IMG/VR virus record: IMGVR_UViG_3300046524_000235
Source of the DNA: a virus
Lineage: Duplodnaviria > Heunggongvirae > Uroviricota > Caudoviricetes
Reading direction: 5' to 3' (one strand)
DNA: 64,000 nucleotides
A program made the position numbers and the translations under genes. The notes under the pieces are model-generated. The model saw only the letters and a program-made list of their open reading frames with translations. It searched no databases and was not told the origin of the DNA. Below are positions 3,282 through 64,000 of this stretch, in pieces; the stretch's first letter is position 1; the number at the start of each line of letters is the position of its first letter.

Positions 3282-3426
3282 GGCTGTTTCACCAAATTAA
3301 TTGAGAAGGAGGAAGATCGGCCTTCACCATTGGAGCGTTGACGAGGACGTAGGACAAGTACGTCTTCAGCTTGACGACAATAATGCGATCTTCCTCAATA
3401 CTCTTATACCAAAATACTGGGGATTA

Positions 3427-57990: not shown

Positions 57991-58278
57991 TTACCACTCC
58001 AAAACCGGAGTATGAATGAATTCGAAATGGGCACTGAGAAGTTTCAAGTACACCCCCATGCTCATGCCCAGCACTTCGTTGCAGACCGTGAAGAGGGTCA
58101 TTGCAGCTGTGTATGCAAGGCGATAGTTCAACAACGAATCCTTATCGTTGTAAACTTGATGAAGGTTCTTACGACCTTCTAGCGTGTGCATTGCCCCAAC
58201 AAACTTCCTGAGAACCATTTCATTGACGCTCAGATTCTGGTTCTCAGTTTTTTCCAGGAAACGAATTTGACTTGCCAT
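57991..58278 (-). CDS. Hypothetical protein
   Basis: 95 aa with AGGA RBS and downstream terminator. Confidence 0.6.
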   Translation of the reverse strand: MASQIRFLEKTENQNLSVNEMVLRKFVGAMHTLEGRKNLHQVYNDKDSLLNYRLAYTAAMTLFTVCNEVLGMSMGVYLKLLSAHFEFIHTPVLEW

Positions 58279-58448
58279 GTCTTGATTCCTTAAATCAGTC
58301 TGTGTTAAAATTAGTTTACACTTGCGAAACGAGGGATTCCCCGTCCCACTTTAAGAACAAATACAAGTTTCTACAAGATCTTGGTTGTTTCGCTCCTTTC
58401 TACCAAGAAGTTCAAACCCGGTGCAATGCCGGGTTTTTTGTTGCTCCC

Positions 58449-58874
58449 TTACATGAACGATCCAGCGCCTGCACTTACCTTAGCTACGGTGCCCTGCGAC
58501 ACTCGTATCTTTTCTTTCTTTGCCTGTTCGAAGTCCATGTTACGCCGAAGTGCAGTCAGATACTCGACAGCCTTGGGGATACTGTATGCATGAACATCAC
58601 ACGGACCACGAGTCACAGCATCATCGGTAATACTGTCGTACGTGTGTTCACCGTTCTGCTCAGAGACATATCCGGTCTCTTGCCAGTCGATTGCGATGAC
58701 GCGTTTGCGCCAGCCAATCTTGATCGTGCCATACTGCGTGTCCACCAGCCACCACGGCGACCCTGCAATAAGCTCGACATACGCTTTGGGCCAGTATTCG
58801 TTTTCTATCTGGGTCGTTTTCTTGACATTAAACCCTGCCAGCAGGAACATCGACTTAACTTGATCTTCACGCAT
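58449..58874 (-). CDS. Hypothetical protein
   Basis: 141 aa; IENEYWP...PWWLV...IKIGWRKRVI pattern of a common phage hypothetical. Confidence 0.65.
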   Translation of the reverse strand: MREDQVKSMFLLAGFNVKKTTQIENEYWPKAYVELIAGSPWWLVDTQYGTIKIGWRKRVIAIDWQETGYVSEQNGEHTYDSITDDAVTRGPCDVHAYSIPKAVEYLTALRRNMDFEQAKKEKIRVSQGTVAKVSAGAGSFM

Positions 58875-58897
58875 GATTTAGCCTTATATGAAACGGG

Positions 58898-59734
58898 TTA
58901 TTGGAACTTTGCTTCGAACTCTTCAAGCATACTGCAAATGTCTGCTTCTGTAACTTCTCTGGTTATCAACGAGGTATCAATCATGAATTCCTTGTTGAAC
59001 CCAGTTTCCTTCTCTCCGTACCCTTGATACCCGAACGGATTCCTGATGACTCTGGTGTTGCCGATCTTTTCATCCATAGCAACATGGCTGTGACCGTGAA
59101 TCCAGACATCAGGAGATTTTTCAGATTCGAGGATATGATCCAACGCGCTGAAATAGCCACAGTTGGCACTGCTGTACTGGTACTGCTTTGCTACTGCCCG
59201 GAACGAAGGGCCATGATGAGTAATAACGACTTTCTTGTGATCCTTGAAATTTTCTGACTTCAAGCACTCTTCAATGAATCCAACCATGAACTCATGCTTC
59301 TGGTTAGTGAAGTCAGTCGTAAGACTCGGACAATGTCTGAAGTCTGCCATGAAGTGCTTGACGATATCTGCATTGATTGGATTCCACAGATTCGTCCAGA
59401 GAGTTCCGCCGATAAAGAGGACGTCATCAATTTGACGATAATCCTCATTGAGAACAGCGACGTTAGGCATCCCTGAAAACACTGTCTTCAGGTCCTTAAC
59501 GAGACCTCTACAATCCTCTGAGCCCCAGTATTCATGGTTACCTGGCACATAAAGGATACGTTTGTACACATCGGCCAGTGCTCGCTTGAGAAGGCCTATG
59601 TTGCGCCATTCACACATGTCTCCTGCGAACACTATTACGTCTGCTTCTGGATTGATAATGGAATGCAGTACACCTTCCCACTGCTTACCTTCCAGACAAT
59701 CTAGATGCAAATCTGAAATAGGTTGAACTTTCAA
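58898..59734 (-). CDS. Calcineurin-like metallophosphoesterase
   Basis: TTG start with AAGGAGGT RBS; SDLH, AGDM, GNHE, THH and GHSH motifs. Confidence 0.9.
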   Translation of the reverse strand: MKVQPISDLHLDCLEGKQWEGVLHSIINPEADVIVFAGDMCEWRNIGLLKRALADVYKRILYVPGNHEYWGSEDCRGLVKDLKTVFSGMPNVAVLNEDYRQIDDVLFIGGTLWTNLWNPINADIVKHFMADFRHCPSLTTDFTNQKHEFMVGFIEECLKSENFKDHKKVVITHHGPSFRAVAKQYQYSSANCGYFSALDHILESEKSPDVWIHGHSHVAMDEKIGNTRVIRNPFGYQGYGEKETGFNKEFMIDTSLITREVTEADICSMLEEFEAKFQ

Positions 59735-59792
59735 AATACCTCCTTGAGGTGAAAGACTTATTCTATAATACTTATACCAAATTGAGGTATAA

Positions 59793-60836
59793 ATGATGCT
59801 TAACAATCCGTCTAAAATTGACAACACTTTTGATGAAGGTACTGTAACAGAAGTCGATCCAATTCGTTCCTTCTGTAAGGTAAAAACTCTTCGTGGACAG
59901 AACCTAGACCAGGTTCAATGGGGTCAACCGTCAGGTGGATCGAGTCGTGCTGGTGACAGAGTAACGCCTGTGATGGGGGATAGGGTTGTTGTCATGCATG
60001 GTCTTGGATATCCATTAATTATTCTATTCCTACCTCGTACACAAACCTCTGATAGTGCGTTTCCTATCAATATCGATACTGGCACTTTAGCAGTAGACAC
60101 GGGTAATTTCAGTCCAGAAGGTGTAAATGCTATTAACGACGTTAACAAAGCTGGAGATTTATCTGTAGGAGATCGTGTCATTGCCTCTAGCGGAGGTGGT
60201 ATACTAGCGGTACTTAGAGGGGGCTCTCTATTAATGAGAAGTTCACGATTGGCTGAGATCTTTATCTCTAAGTGGGACGATGTTGTACGCATTGTTTCTC
60301 GTAACTTTGAACACTTTACTGATGTGAGTTCTGACATCGTTAAGAATATCAAAGGTCGAGTATATCGATACACAGGATACGCAGCAACATCTGATGCAGC
60401 AAAGATAGAGAACTACGGATACAACCTGTACTACGGTGATGTTGCTTTAGCTCAGGCTGTAAAGACTGGTTATCAAAATGCAGGTGCTCCTCCTGCAAGT
60501 TCTTCAATCATTTTCAGGGAAGAAGTTCCAGCCGGTTCAATGTATCGAATTGTGGATGGAGTATCAGGAGCAGTAACTCAAGTAGTAGGACAGACAAAGA
60601 TATACCAAGACGGCACTAAGGTTACGGTTGACTTTGGTGGGAACCACATCGCCACTTGGGATGGTTCTCAAATCAAACTTGATTACGAAGGGCAACAAAC
60701 TGTTACAGTTAACGGTAGCGTCATTGACCTAAAACATAGTAGTGGTGCCGAAGTCAATCTTAGCAGTGATGGCGCAAAAACAACGTTTAACGGTCACTTC
60801 GTTAATGTCACATCAGGTGGCGTTCAAATGGGATAA
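59793..60836 (+). CDS. Baseplate hub/spike-like protein (OB-fold N-terminus, beta-repeat C-terminus)
   Basis: GTVTEVDP...P..GDRVVV OB-fold pattern; short beta-strand repeats at the C-terminus. Confidence 0.6.
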   Translation: MMLNNPSKIDNTFDEGTVTEVDPIRSFCKVKTLRGQNLDQVQWGQPSGGSSRAGDRVTPVMGDRVVVMHGLGYPLIILFLPRTQTSDSAFPINIDTGTLAVDTGNFSPEGVNAINDVNKAGDLSVGDRVIASSGGGILAVLRGGSLLMRSSRLAEIFISKWDDVVRIVSRNFEHFTDVSSDIVKNIKGRVYRYTGYAATSDAAKIENYGYNLYYGDVALAQAVKTGYQNAGAPPASSSIIFREEVPAGSMYRIVDGVSGAVTQVVGQTKIYQDGTKVTVDFGGNHIATWDGSQIKLDYEGQQTVTVNGSVIDLKHSSGAEVNLSSDGAKTTFNGHFVNVTSGGVQMG

Positions 60837-60839
60837 TTT

Positions 60840-62006
60840 ATGTTTACTAAATTTTTAAGTTGGCTCGGTTCACTTTTCAGAAAGAGCCAAACAGATAAAG
60901 GAGAGGTTGTGAGAAAGAAGATTCAGTTTATTTTGAAGTATAGAGAAAATGCCTACACAGATGAAGGTGGGTACTGCAGTACAGGGATGTTAGAAAGCGG
61001 TTTGTTTAACAGCGCACGATTCATGGTTGACATGCTAAATGATCATCCAGACATGTTCGAAGCAGAAATCGTACACGTAGAAGACAACAACGGTATTGAT
61101 AGAGAAGTTACTAGATACAAACCAGACATTGTAGTAATCGAAGCATACTGGGTAGTTCCAGAGAAGTTTGAAGTTCTGACAAAGCTACATCCAAAGGTTA
61201 AGTGGGTTATTCGCAATCACAGTAAGTCACCGTTCTTGGCAAATGAAGGCATTGCGTTTGATTGGTCAATGAGATACACAGACTATCCTAACGTTTACGT
61301 TTCATCAAATGCAGAAAATACGAACAGCGAAATCGCTCAACTAGTGTATAACCATCATGCCGATTGGTCACTAGCACAAGCAAAAGAACGCTGCCCGTAT
61401 CTTCCTAACTACTACCCTATCCAGAAGTTGAAGTGTGATCGTCACGATTATAAGCCTCACAACCATGAAGTTCATATCGGATGTTTCGGTGCAATTCGCC
61501 CTCTGAAGAACCATGTAATCCAAGCACTTGCTGCAATCAAGTTTGCTGATCGTATTGGTAAGAAGTTGTTCTTTCACATCAATAGTACTCGTCTTGAGAA
61601 CGCTGGCTCCAACCAGGTACTTAAGAATCTACAAATGATCTTTAATGGCATTGATCATGAGTTAGTTGAGCATTCTTGGATGAAACATGCTGACTTCATC
61701 AAACTGATCGGCACAATGGATTTTGGCCTACAAGTATCTTACACTGAAACTTTCAACATTGTAACTGCTGATCAAGTTTCTCAAGGTGTACCAGTAGTTG
61801 TTTCTGATGAAGTAGATTGGGTAGATGGCTTATTCCATGCGGATCCCAACGATTCAGATGACATTGCTGAGAAGTTGTTTATTGCCAACATCTATGCTCG
61901 TGCTCAAGGTTGGGTGTATAAAAATCACAACAACCTCGATAGATACAATGAAAAAACTGAGAGACAGTGGATTCACGAAATTCAACGTCTAACTGCGAAA
62001 AGCTAA
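60840..62006 (+). CDS. Glycosyltransferase, GT-B fold (GT4-like)
   Basis: CFGAIRPLKNH and SYTETFNIVTAD...GVPVVVS donor-binding motifs. Confidence 0.8.
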   Translation: MFTKFLSWLGSLFRKSQTDKGEVVRKKIQFILKYRENAYTDEGGYCSTGMLESGLFNSARFMVDMLNDHPDMFEAEIVHVEDNNGIDREVTRYKPDIVVIEAYWVVPEKFEVLTKLHPKVKWVIRNHSKSPFLANEGIAFDWSMRYTDYPNVYVSSNAENTNSEIAQLVYNHHADWSLAQAKERCPYLPNYYPIQKLKCDRHDYKPHNHEVHIGCFGAIRPLKNHVIQALAAIKFADRIGKKLFFHINSTRLENAGSNQVLKNLQMIFNGIDHELVEHSWMKHADFIKLIGTMDFGLQVSYTETFNIVTADQVSQGVPVVVSDEVDWVDGLFHADPNDSDDIAEKLFIANIYARAQGWVYKNHNNLDRYNEKTERQWIHEIQRLTAKS

Positions 62007-62033
62007 AAAAAGCCGGGTTCAACCCCGGCTTTC
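62005..62033. terminator. Bidirectional intrinsic terminator closing the RT operon
   Basis: A7, AGCCGGG/CCCGGCT stem, TTT. Confidence 0.8.
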
Positions 62034-62043
62034 TATTTGGTTC

Positions 62044-62130
62044 CTAAGAAGTAATCATGGGTACTACGTTCGTTTCATTGCAGTGTACGAGTCCATCTAC
62101 TGCACCGAGATGTGGATTTATGCGGTCCAT
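62044..62130 (-). CDS. 28-aa ORF downstream of RT (not in ORF track)
   Basis: AGGGAGAG RBS; MDRINPHLGAVDGLVHCNETNVVPMITS; ends before the terminator. Confidence 0.4.
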   Translation of the reverse strand: MDRINPHLGAVDGLVHCNETNVVPMITS

Positions 62131-62146
62131 TTCAACTCTCCCTGTT

Positions 62147-62314
62147 TATACTACGGTTAAGAATAACTTCTTACTGCGGTAGTACAGGCCAAGCTCCGGA
62201 AGCAGACTACAGTTCTTTTACCCAGAAGAACTAGTCAGAAAAAACTGGCAAAGCTTTCGTAATGGCGGATACGATTACTTTACGGTGTTGCTGAGTCTAG
62301 CGACATAAATACTT
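62147..62314 (-). ncRNA. Candidate retron-like ncRNA (permuted msd-a2-a1-msr arrangement) downstream of RT
   Basis: ORF-free spacer with consecutive hairpins: AGUUCUU/AAGAACU stem followed by G, a GUC..GGC stem-loop and a UGUACUAC/GUAGUAUA stem-loop. Folded by eye only. Confidence 0.45.
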
Positions 62315-63334
62315 TTACGCTTTCTCAATGGCGATAGGATCACTTGATTGCTTGCCCATATCGACTTCTTTTAGCTTTGACTTTAAACGAGCACCAGCTG
62401 TGGGATTCAGCTGGCCGAACCAGTTCAACCGCCCCATGAGTTTACTGTAAAACAACTCTGCACTGATTCCGGCTTTGGCGGCCTCCGCCTCAATTCCGTT
62501 CTTGTTGCAGTTGTAAACCATAGCCCTGAGTTTGTTACGCTCAGATTTTTGCAGATTGACCTTGACGTTCACAACGGCTCCGCATACATACTGCCGTTGG
62601 AAATGGCGCATCACTTTAGTCTTGGACTTGTTTACCCTGAATCGGTAACGTCCAACTTCAGTTGATACTTTGCGAAGAATCTTTCCAACAATACCTTTCC
62701 CTAACTTTTCTCGCGTTTCTGCATCCATCGAGATCGTGATGTCGTCAGCATAGATGCTGAGCGTCAGATTGTTTTCATCACAGAACTCTTTGATAGCAGG
62801 ACCGAATGTCAGTGCAGTAATGATGTTACTGATCTTTGGACTGGTCAAGGCTCCTTGTGGGACGAATGACTCATAAGTACAAAGTTCTGACAATGTTCTA
62901 GCCGGTGCTTGACCGAAGCCAAGATGCTGGAACAAATCGAAAAGCTGGTATTGCTTGATAGAAGTGAAAAAATCCTCTAGGTCGATACTCACGACCATGT
63001 CCTTACCCACATGGCTTTCGGCCATTTTAGGAATACTCCTGCCCTTCTCAAAAGCATGAATGTATTCCGGTACCTCAATTTTATCCAGTATTTGGGTTAG
63101 GATCTTATACTGGACAACACGCATCAAGCTGTCTGGATTATGCAGGATTCTGTATTTCGTAATCGGCCCCCTCTTTCGCAGAGAAAGAATCGAGTAGTGC
63201 TCCGATTTGTTCTTCCCAAGCAGCGTTAGCATCTTCGATGATTTCCACCGAAGCTTCTCTGACAGATCCTTGTTCGACTGGATGCTGAACGGCTTGACGT
63301 AGGGCCTTAATACTAGTTGTTCCTGAATTTCCAT
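62315..63334 (-). CDS. Retron-type reverse transcriptase
   Basis: YRILHNP, HAFEKGRSI, MAESH (region X NAxxH-like), DLEDFFTSI, PQGALTSP, YADD, VCGAVVN (region Y VTG-like); no maturase/endonuclease domain. Confidence 0.93.
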   Translation of the reverse strand: MEIQEQLVLRPYVKPFSIQSNKDLSEKLRWKSSKMLTLLGKNKSEHYSILSLRKRGPITKYRILHNPDSLMRVVQYKILTQILDKIEVPEYIHAFEKGRSIPKMAESHVGKDMVVSIDLEDFFTSIKQYQLFDLFQHLGFGQAPARTLSELCTYESFVPQGALTSPKISNIITALTFGPAIKEFCDENNLTLSIYADDITISMDAETREKLGKGIVGKILRKVSTEVGRYRFRVNKSKTKVMRHFQRQYVCGAVVNVKVNLQKSERNKLRAMVYNCNKNGIEAEAAKAGISAELFYSKLMGRLNWFGQLNPTAGARLKSKLKEVDMGKQSSDPIAIEKA

Positions 63335-63629
63335 TTGCTTGTTCTCTTTTAGCTACTGCAACTTCTCTTGATTTCCGAATTACCTGACGCATAAGATCTT
63401 GGACGGTTACGTGATACGGCTTTTTGTTTATGATCACGATACCTTCCATTAAGACCGGCGGTGCCTTTTCAAACCGCATAATACTATCGCCGTCAGTGAA
63501 CGGCTTGACCTTGATAGGATAGTAGTTATACAGCAGCCCTGTTTTAACGAGATAATAGTTGTTCTTAATCTCTAGGGCAGGCGATGACATCTTTGGAACG
63601 TTCTTCGAACTAGTGGACGAAATATCCAT
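63138..63629 (-). CDS. 163-aa ORF overlapping the RT 5' end in another frame
   Basis: Protein-like composition; 197-nt same-strand overlap with RT; RBS weak. Confidence 0.45.
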   Translation of the reverse strand: MDISSTSSKNVPKMSSPALEIKNNYYLVKTGLLYNYYPIKVKPFTDGDSIMRFEKAPPVLMEGIVIINKKPYHVTVQDLMRQVIRKSREVAVAKREQANGNSGTTSIKALRQAVQHPVEQGSVREASVEIIEDANAAWEEQIGALLDSFSAKEGADYEIQNPA

Positions 63630-63694
63630 TGTTGCATCCGAAATTAATGTAGGTAGTTTCTACCTACGGTTTCTAAAAGAGCTAAGCGGGAAGG

Positions 63695-63823
63695 TTAATA
63701 CGCTTCTTTATCGCTCAGCTTAGTTGCGAAGTCATCGAGAACGTCCATAACGCTATTAACGATACGAAGGACGATCTTGACAACTCGGACAACCATGACG
63801 AGCTTCTTTAGGAATTTACCCAT
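63695..63823 (-). CDS. 42-aa amphipathic cationic peptide (not in ORF track)
   Basis: CAGGAGAG RBS; MGKFLKKLVMVVRVVKIVLRIVNSVMDVLDDFATKLSDKEAY; first ORF after promoter motif 63906. Confidence 0.7.
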   Translation of the reverse strand: MGKFLKKLVMVVRVVKIVLRIVNSVMDVLDDFATKLSDKEAY

Positions 63824-64000
63824 AGCGATCTCTCCTGATTAGTCTGTAGGCTTGACTAAAAAGATTGGTCGCTGCTTCCGGAGTAGGGTAGTGCCCTGTA
63901 AGATGCTTATACCAAAAGATCTGTTTTTGTTGATGCTAAAAAACAAGGCTTTGTGGGCCTTGTTCTCCTACTTATGCAGCAAGTCCTTTACAACGCAAAT

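Follow-up and report, generated by a model that had tools for sequence, protein, structure and literature searches.

In the window analysed here, a 64,000-nucleotide (nt) stretch of a Caudoviricetes virus (IMG/VR record IMGVR_UViG_3300046524_000235), a reverse transcriptase (RT) operon is encoded on the minus strand, and the 5' leader and 3' trailer of its predicted transcript are complementary to each other across 1.67 kb, with all three genes of the operon lying between the paired arms. Judged by compensatory change across homologous loci, this leader-trailer pairing is almost certainly real and maintained by selection. We give roughly even odds (a probability of about 0.5), from sequence evidence, that the helix represents the a1/a2 stem of a retron hybrid RNA that spans the operon and has its nearest parallel in the hybrid RNA of Type VI retrons. 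Retron RNAs are usually regarded as compact non-coding cassettes. That a Type VI retron RNA can embed a small toxin gene was shown only in 2025-2026 (bioRxiv 10.1101/2025.10.22.683967; bioRxiv 10.64898/2026.04.27.721009), and the operon described here would carry this logic to its extreme, its arms enclosing the entire operon, RT gene included, with structured RNA past the RT.

The leader-trailer duplex in the window

The operon forms a self-contained unit at 63915-62007, in which a 42-amino-acid (aa) open reading frame (ORF) is followed by ORF2 (163 aa) and the RT gene (339 aa). It begins with a promoter motif of the extended -10 type, TTGGTATAAG (63915-63906, on the minus strand, as are all features of the operon given below), with a predicted +1 near 63899, and it ends in an intrinsic bidirectional terminator (62034-62007) whose stem is conserved and covarying. 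Taken together, promoter and terminator place both arms within one predicted transcript, consisting of a leader of ~75 nt between the predicted start and the 42-aa ORF, the three genes, and a trailer of 308 nt closed by the terminator.

Within this transcript, the leader sequence CTCCGGAAGCAG (63883-63872), followed by CGA (63871-63869), is perfectly complementary to the trailer sequence CTGCTTCCGGAG (62205-62194), giving 12 contiguous Watson-Crick pairs, so that the perfect 12-bp duplex proposed in the initial annotation is borne out at these coordinates. The a1-like 5' arm, CUCCGGAAGCAG, lies ~17 nt after the predicted start and ends in G63872, the candidate priming G; the a2-like 3' arm, CUGCUUCCGGAG, starts 110 nt past the RT stop codon (62317-62315), and its first base, C62205, doubles as a closing-pair base of the adjoining hairpin, H3. 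An extension of the duplex by ACAGG/CCUGU, also proposed earlier, was recovered as TACAGG/CCTGTA, an outer pairing of UACAGG (63900-63895), at or near the 5' end of the transcript, with CCUGUA (62188-62183), which is separated from the 12-bp arm by an asymmetric 11/5-nt internal loop. The leader side of this loop, GCACUACCCUA (63894-63884), contains ACCCUA in 9/10 window-clade leader sequences and ACCCGU in the remaining one, L026. The outer 3' arm also has a local partner, in that CCUGU (from 62188) can pair with ACAGG at 62145-62141 and thereby close the next trailer hairpin, a pairing with which the outer helix competes.

The probability of such a match arising by chance, previously estimated by simple counting at about 1 in 1000, agrees with the outcome of dinucleotide shuffling, in which leader (82 nt) and trailer (308 nt) shared a perfect duplex of ≥12 bp in 3/5000 shuffles. 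Far stronger evidence than this single-sequence statistic is the comparative conservation of the pairing.

Compensatory change across homologous loci

Relatives of the operon were found through the RT and ORF2 in viral and metagenome collections and in a set of 5.8 billion proteins, and the comparison comprises 17 further loci with both ends, that is, 18 loci with the window, representing 15 independent arm sequences. Searches of GenBank phages by blastn and tblastn gave no match, and no relative of ORF2 was found among 185,579 prokaryote genomes. Each locus has complementarity between the ~55 nt at the start of its transcript and its own trailer, and the arm sequences differ from locus to locus. 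Thirteen pairs are formed by CUCGAAGAAGCAG and CUGCUUCUUCGAG in L006 and L007, where both arms are one nucleotide longer, and by CUCGGAGAAACAG and CUGUUUCUCCGAG in L021, and 12 pairs by CUCGUAAAGCAG and CUGCUUUACGAG in L020; further changed but complementary arms are UCUCGUGACCA / UGGUCACGGGA in L023, GUUGCUUAUAUAGUU/AACUAUGUAAGCAAC, and CCGUGAGAUAG / CUAUCUCACGG in L019, the last accompanied by an outer helix, GUUGACAUA/UAUGUCAAU. A 12-bp helix with one bulge is present in L014, L024 and L025, and leader-trailer helices of 14-17 bp (including G.U pairs) and of unrelated sequence are present in L008, L017, L022 and L027. The nested outer helix is likewise kept with changed sequence in L026, L019 and L018, reaching 13 bp in L018, which has a 9-bp non-nested candidate besides.

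Because MAFFT places 12-nt and 13-nt arms in different registers, the pairing was evaluated by a permutation test, in which one representative per arm sequence (n=15) was scored by its best contiguous helix and compared with deranged leader-trailer partners; RNAduplex with long flanks was too noisy to tell cognate from non-cognate combinations, and contiguous-helix scoring was used in its place. The mean score of cognate helices was 12.0, compared with 8.11 ± 0.28 (maximum 9.33) for deranged ones, and the observed value was reached in 0/20000 permutations. With the same helix scoring, two control comparisons, the leader against the RT coding sequence and the peptide coding sequence against the trailer, showed no cognate excess.

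The form of the pairing further indicates the molecule on which selection has acted. When G.U pairs are allowed, cognate helices grow from 11 to 15 in L008, from 8 to 12.5 in L017, from 8 to 14.5 in L022 and from 7 to 12.5 in L024, whereas allowing A.C pairs, the equivalent for an antisense RNA, adds just 0 to 1.5 in the same four loci. A gain from G.U pairs so much larger than that from A.C pairs argues that the pairing is selected in the sense RNA and not as a DNA inverted repeat. In minimum-energy folds of whole transcripts (1.75-2.0 kb), the helix is fully formed in 8/17 loci, the window included (12/12 arm nucleotides), and partly formed in L026 (7/12). Covariation among homologs, on which the initial annotation had made its proposal depend, is thus present as compensatory change in the 18 loci (15 independent arms), and a functional leader-trailer pairing of the RT operon is upheld by the comparative evidence.

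A retron-like junction and a possible priming mechanism

The RT (63334-62315), in which the YADD motif is intact, falls within the retron clade. Among the PADLOC models, retron matches span 8e-67 to 1e-40, led by RT_III-A (8e-67, 223.7 bits) and followed by RT_XIII (207 bits) and RT_II-A (205.9 bits), both at ~1e-61, and by RT_VI (6e-56, 187.7 bits), so that Type VI is not the best by profile score. Retron models of NCBIfam match the RT below their cutoffs (retron_St85_RT at 1e-50), group II and DRT models score far more weakly, and the closest solved structure is that of the Ec86 RT (4e-30, with the alignment starting from RT residue 23).

The junction at the inner end of the helix is consistent with a role in priming. 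In 11/11 window-clade loci the 5' arm ends in CAG and is followed by CGA, which makes A63873-U62204 the last pair and places G63872 inside an invariant AGC (63873-63871); C62205 has two possible partners, G63872 or G62236, the latter closing H3. A G also follows the arm in L019. In published retrons, the terminal stem ends in a conserved AGC that contains the priming G, and cDNA synthesis starts immediately 5' of the 3' arm (PMC6868368). The placement of the AGC and of H3 matches this published rule, so the local geometry is retron-like, and a1/a2-type inverted repeats with a G in AGC at the stem end are found at the sequence level in the window clade.

Both flanks of this junction are structured. 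On the trailer side, H3, GACUAGUUCUU-CUGGGUAA-AAGAACUGUAGUC (62236-62205), directly adjoins the 3' arm and could, like an msd, serve as the first template; in the consensus fold its loop is invariant and its stem covaries through compensatory pairs, the loop reading CUGGGUAA in all window-clade loci, CUGGGCAA in L023 and CUAGGCAA in L019. The 3' arm itself is unpaired in trailer-only consensus and centroid folds and is thus free for a distant partner. On the leader side, a putative msr-like fold (63873-63824) is closed by AGCGA (63873-63869) with UCGCU (63828-63824), a stem that encloses the hairpin UUAGUC/GACUAA (63859-63839) and the ribosome site AGGAGAG (63836-63830) of the 42-aa ORF. The sequence of the leader hairpin varies among lineages and the hairpin is retained, for example as CCCCA-GCCUU-UGGGG.

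A mechanism can be proposed from these elements. One transcript of ~1.9 kb, encoding the small peptide, ORF2 and the RT, would be closed by the long-range helix, and its retron RNA would be split into an msr-like 5' part, made up of the arm, the AGC with G63872 and one hairpin, after which comes the peptide ribosome site, and an msd-like part past the RT stop, namely H3 next to the 3' arm. The RT, translated from its own mRNA and ending 110 nt before the 3' arm, would bind the nearby trailer; pairing of the arms would put the 2'-OH of G63872 beside C62205, and DNA synthesis would run into H3. Translation of the peptide would probably be set as well by arm pairing or by cDNA synthesis, an effect proposed from the position of the 5' arm, next to the AGCGA/UCGCU stem around the peptide ribosome site, and one that occurs in the hybrid RNAs of Type VI retrons. 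From the sequence we infer that there is one transcript, that G63872 is the priming nucleotide, which segment serves as template and that translation is affected.

Several observations weigh against the assignment to a retron RNA. With regard to the helix, it is absent from the whole-transcript minimum-energy fold in 8/17 loci; the arm of L026 consists of 10 bp plus two A.A mismatches, and the outer helix of that locus, UACGGGCA/UGCCCGUA, is stronger; and in L008, L017, L022 and L027 the arm homologs (CUCAGGCC/GGCCUGAG and variants; CUC.../...GAG) are short and lie within hairpin loops, while a second, longer leader-trailer helix occurs in non-nested order, with the same 5'-to-3' order on both strands. 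With regard to the junction, L023 is without a G after the arm, and in 5 distant loci, L017, L022, L027 and L008 among them, the offset of the G varies and the topology differs too. H3, with a stem of ~11 bp, is short for an msd, and a variable-length hairpin that is more msd-like in appearance, H4, sits 3' of the arm. There is no contiguous msr-msd beside the RT, the msr-like and msd-like parts being 1.67 kb apart, and to our knowledge msr and msd are contiguous in every known retron. An Rfam scan of 58000-64000 (E up to 1) returned four unrelated sub-threshold hits, none at gathering score, and no retron RNA. Retron motifs of the RT, as read from its translation, are variant, with MAESH for NAXXH and VCG for VTG; these variants are conserved in the family (MAESH/MAECH, VCG), and validated retrons also show exceptions at the Asn of NAXXH and in VTG (PMC6868368). 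The RNA record, finally, comprises four metatranscriptome contigs of depth 2-3 from runs X19 and X20 (62040-62190, 62068-62218, 62274-62424 and 62557-62734), three of them on the trailer or the trailer/RT junction and one bridging the RT stop; at this depth, and with DNA carry-over possible, they are uninformative on strand, ends and a single transcript.

The split retron that had been suggested at the outset agrees with all that the sequence is able to reveal, the RT clade, the AGC junction, the 3' arm adjoining 62236-62205 and the msr-like hairpin after the G being in its favour; in the more distant loci, the G has no fixed offset and the topology is different.

Comparison with known systems

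The hybrid RNA of Type VI retrons, which had not been raised in the initial annotation, is the closest published parallel. In Retron-Vpa2, msr-msd and the gene of a small toxic protein are combined in a hybrid RNA of ~470 nt, whose 3' end folds back and anneals by way of a1/a2-like repeats, and the retron's DNA product (msDNA) de-represses translation of the toxin (bioRxiv 10.1101/2025.10.22.683967). In Retron-Sen3, a conserved IR1-IR2 stem surrounds the toxin gene, and a helix-turn-helix (HTH) protein overlaps the RT (bioRxiv 10.64898/2026.04.27.721009). The phage operon resembles these systems in its gene order of a small hydrophobic protein, a second protein overlapping the RT and a retron RT, in the coding sequence that would lie inside the retron RNA, in the 3' segment that folds back onto the 5' part through a1/a2-like repeats, and in the small-protein ribosome site lying within structure, the 42-aa ORF here being placed between covarying arms. 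It differs from them in that Type VI retrons have a complete msr-msd of ~280 nt upstream and repeats that enclose the small-protein gene only, whereas the phage leader has ~75 nt, the phage arms enclose all three genes, and structured RNA follows the RT. The middle protein is a Cro/C1 HTH protein in Type VI, in contrast to what the structural model suggests is a beta-rich orphan in the phage; the phage RT scores higher on the III-A, XIII and II-A models than on VI; and the host is a bacterium in Type VI and a large phage with terminal repeats here.

With Retron-Eco1 (Ec86), the operon shares a retron-clade RT, a 12-bp terminal stem, the G in AGC at the 3' end of the 5' arm and an A in the last pair (PMC6868368), and also a hairpin immediately 5' of the 3' arm and a stem-loop after the G. 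The canonical msr-msd is contiguous, located upstream of the RT and ~150-250 nt long, whereas the corresponding parts in the phage are split by three ORFs, the phage RNA continues past its 3' arm, the NAXXH and VTG motifs are variant, and the phage system is known from sequence alone.

In type I toxin mRNAs of the hok/sok kind, the 5' and 3' ends fold back on each other and the gene encodes a small hydrophobic or amphipathic peptide. The analogy with hok, which the initial annotation had drawn, holds for the architecture alone, that is, a small peptide gene at the 5' end of an mRNA with pairable 5' and 3' ends. It does not extend to sequence, there being no relation to hok/sok; the phage pairing spans an RT gene, and the phage transcript is not known to have an antisense RNA, an overlapping leader frame or 3' processing.

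Alternative explanations

The principal alternative, which we regard as possible but doubtful, is that the helix serves as a regulatory 5'-3' lock on peptide translation and/or mRNA stability, comparable to the hok fold-back or the IR1-IR2 stem of Retron-Sen3, and not as a priming duplex, in which case the RT would template elsewhere, for instance on H4 or the 3' domain, or act only with the lock open. Such a role is suggested by the position of the 5' arm next to the AGCGA/UCGCU stem around the ribosome site, by a fold of the leader alone in which AUGGGU, at the peptide start, is weakly paired with the conserved ACCC and the first part of the arm, and by the local competitor of the outer arm CCUGUA, which implies that the RNA can adopt alternative states; in distant loci, moreover, a G does not always follow the arm, and the IR1-IR2 stem of Sen3 flanks the toxin gene and repositions the toxin ribosome site (bioRxiv 10.64898/2026.04.27.721009). 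The local structure of the leader is nevertheless weak (z -1.06), the ACCC:GGGU pairing is without covariation and is lost in L026, a simple lock has no need of an invariant AGC junction and an adjoining hairpin, and no antisense RNA or hok-like overlapping frame turned up, no dedicated search having been made. The initial annotation had offered a switch of this general kind, in which the leader invades "stem-loop a" of a permuted ncRNA. That stem-loop is not conserved and is absent from the consensus and centroid folds, so this part of the proposal is abandoned; given that the arm adjoins the AGCGA/UCGCU stem, a link with translation of the 42-aa peptide is still plausible. The whole-operon retron RNA and the regulatory lock are not mutually exclusive and can hold together.

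That the helix is a processing or stabilising stem, providing an RNase III-type cleavage site or protecting the 5' end in the manner of rRNA-operon stems, appears improbable. The arms do bracket the whole coding part, the outer helix starts at about +1 and would bury the 5' end, and a stack of H3, arms and outer helix could reach ~30 bp, but the helices are short (12 + 6 bp) and broken by the 11/5-nt loop, ~170 nt of conserved, covarying RNA lie outside the stem, and neither the link to a retron RT nor the AGC junction would be explained. Very little weight is given to a DNA-level reading in which the arms are the terminal inverted repeats of an RT cassette that moves or recombines. Inverted repeats do lie on either side of 1.7 kb of genes, but the wobble asymmetry points to sense-strand RNA, and the repeats leave out the promoter, the terminator and 170 nt of conserved trailer; it is complementarity and not arm sequence that is conserved, and the cassette position and the set of downstream genes are shared by all loci. 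A chance match without function, which the shuffles allow for a single 12-mer, is effectively refuted by the permutation result over 15 independent lineages.

Implications of a possible operon-spanning retron RNA

If the a1/a2 reading is correct, the arms of a retron would be able to work over kilobases of translated RNA, and the operon would be a natural case of strict cis-coupling of an RT to its own mRNA. If priming over 1.7 kb takes place, the rules by which retron RNAs are searched for would need to change, since many RTs considered to be "ncRNA-less" (without a non-coding RNA) might be organized alike. The carriers form a syntenic family of large soil phages with terminal repeats, and the question would be raised of what use a lytic phage has for a retron. 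One tentative scenario, suggested by the sequence, is that a large lytic phage encodes an RT for which a G in the 5' leader of the RT's own mRNA serves as primer and the 3' untranslated region as template, and that formation of the resulting branched mRNA-DNA switches a 42-aa toxin-like peptide on or off; if so, the phage could use the switch to attack competing phages or to time the killing of its host. For experiments, the 15 natural arm variants represent a ready set of compensatory mutants.

The small protein and its surroundings

The first gene of the operon encodes a cationic amphipathic small protein of 42 aa (63823-63695), a candidate effector or toxin. Homologs of 40-50 aa, 11 of which were aligned, occupy the same position before ORF2 and the RT in the relatives examined, and protein-family searches gave no family match for either the small protein or ORF2. 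The sequence UGGGUAAA is found both at the peptide start codon (63815-63822) and in the invariant loop of H3 (62217-62224), and the conserved leader UACCC (63890-63886) is complementary to both copies. A cDNA of H3 would be complementary to the start-codon copy of UGGGUAAA and might thus compete for it with the leader motif; the link is lost in L026. A tertiary pairing of the leader UACCC with GGGUA of the H3 loop or with AUGGGUA at the peptide start was considered and rejected, as it shows no covariation and has no counterpart in L019, L023 and L026.

Between the small-protein gene and ORF2 lies a conserved hairpin (63667-63649), with the conserved GCUUAGCUCUUUUAGAA just before it and a stem that covaries among relatives (GUAGGUAG, GUGGGUAG, GCAGGUAG, GUAGACAG, GAGGGUUG). 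The analysis flagged it as terminator-like, but the relatives are without a U-run. GCUUAGCUCUUUUAGAA is the conserved form, after the peptide stop (63649-63690), of a motif, UCUUUUAG, that is followed there by the covarying hairpin; a near-copy, UCUUUUUAGUC, occurs in the leader (63854-63864), where it leads into a hairpin of its own. This repetition recalls the conserved direct repeats reported for Type VI hybrid RNAs.

The structured 3' domain of the trailer

Beyond the 3' arm, the trailer continues into a structured 3' domain (62188-62040) comprising H4, a multi-helix part with the pairings GAGUU/GACUC, UGGA/UCCA and CAUCU/AGAUG, and the invariant ACUUCUUAGGAA, which is placed before the terminator. 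Compensatory changes occur in 14/40 consensus pairs over the whole aligned trailer, and the trailer has a z-score of -2.5. This half of the trailer (62040-62188) is missing or much shorter in the lineage of L017 and L022. A 28-codon ORF at 62130-62044 was rejected as a gene, its length being variable (L020 has 8 codons, and the ATG is missing in L026); its apparent Shine-Dalgarno sequence, GAGUU, pairs with the invariant GACUC/AACUC, which is further evidence against a gene. The sequence UUUUUUCUGAC (62244-62234) resembles the 3' end of the Ec86 msd, a likeness that we take to be coincidence.

ORF2 and its overlap with the RT

ORF2 (63629-63138) encodes an orphan protein of 163 aa, for which an AlphaFold2 model predicts that residues 10-90 form a beta-rich domain, joined by a disordered linker to a helix at the C-terminus. 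None of its 60 homologs has a Pfam domain, and comparison of the model with the PDB gave no convincing match (Foldseek E no better than 0.16, VIA Z ≤4.5). Assignment as an HTH protein, as in Type VI, was rejected, since the model shows a beta-rich domain and a helix, with no HTH and no Pfam match. ORF2 and the RT overlap by 197 nt of dual-coded sequence (63138-63334), in which both frames are open and conserved in relatives with listed ORFs. The portion of ORF2 in this overlap corresponds to the predicted C-terminal helix. Gene callers place the RT start past the ORF2 stop, yet homology to Ec86 begins inside the overlap, at residue 23.

Promoter, terminator and phage context

The phage record from which the window is taken measures 181 kb and has direct terminal repeats. 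The promoter motif TTGGTATAAG occurs in 14 exact copies in the window, on the minus strand only (e.g. at 3403, 4816, 6330, 15453, 59771 and 63906), and in 20 matches, compared with 4.2 expected, when one mismatch is allowed; it looks like the phage's own promoter consensus. From this copy number and strand bias, the transcription start predicted earlier near 63899 is judged credible. GGTATAA is found ~280 nt upstream of ORF2 in all homologous loci. At the other end of the operon, the terminator region (62007-62020 and relatives) has a U-run and an AGC/AGG ending (TTTTTTTAGC) in nearly all loci. The terminator overlaps the stop codon of a convergent glycosyltransferase-like gene of ~390 aa (60840-62006), and a convergent gene of ~350-420 aa downstream is common to all 17 further loci.

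On the upstream side, the DNA of several relatives contains repeated (T)GGACA motifs; CTGGACA is not enriched in the 64-kb window. The contigs of L005, L006, L007, L019, L020, L022, L023, L024 and L025 stop a few hundred bases upstream of the operon, which could reflect an assembly break, a variable region or a genome end.

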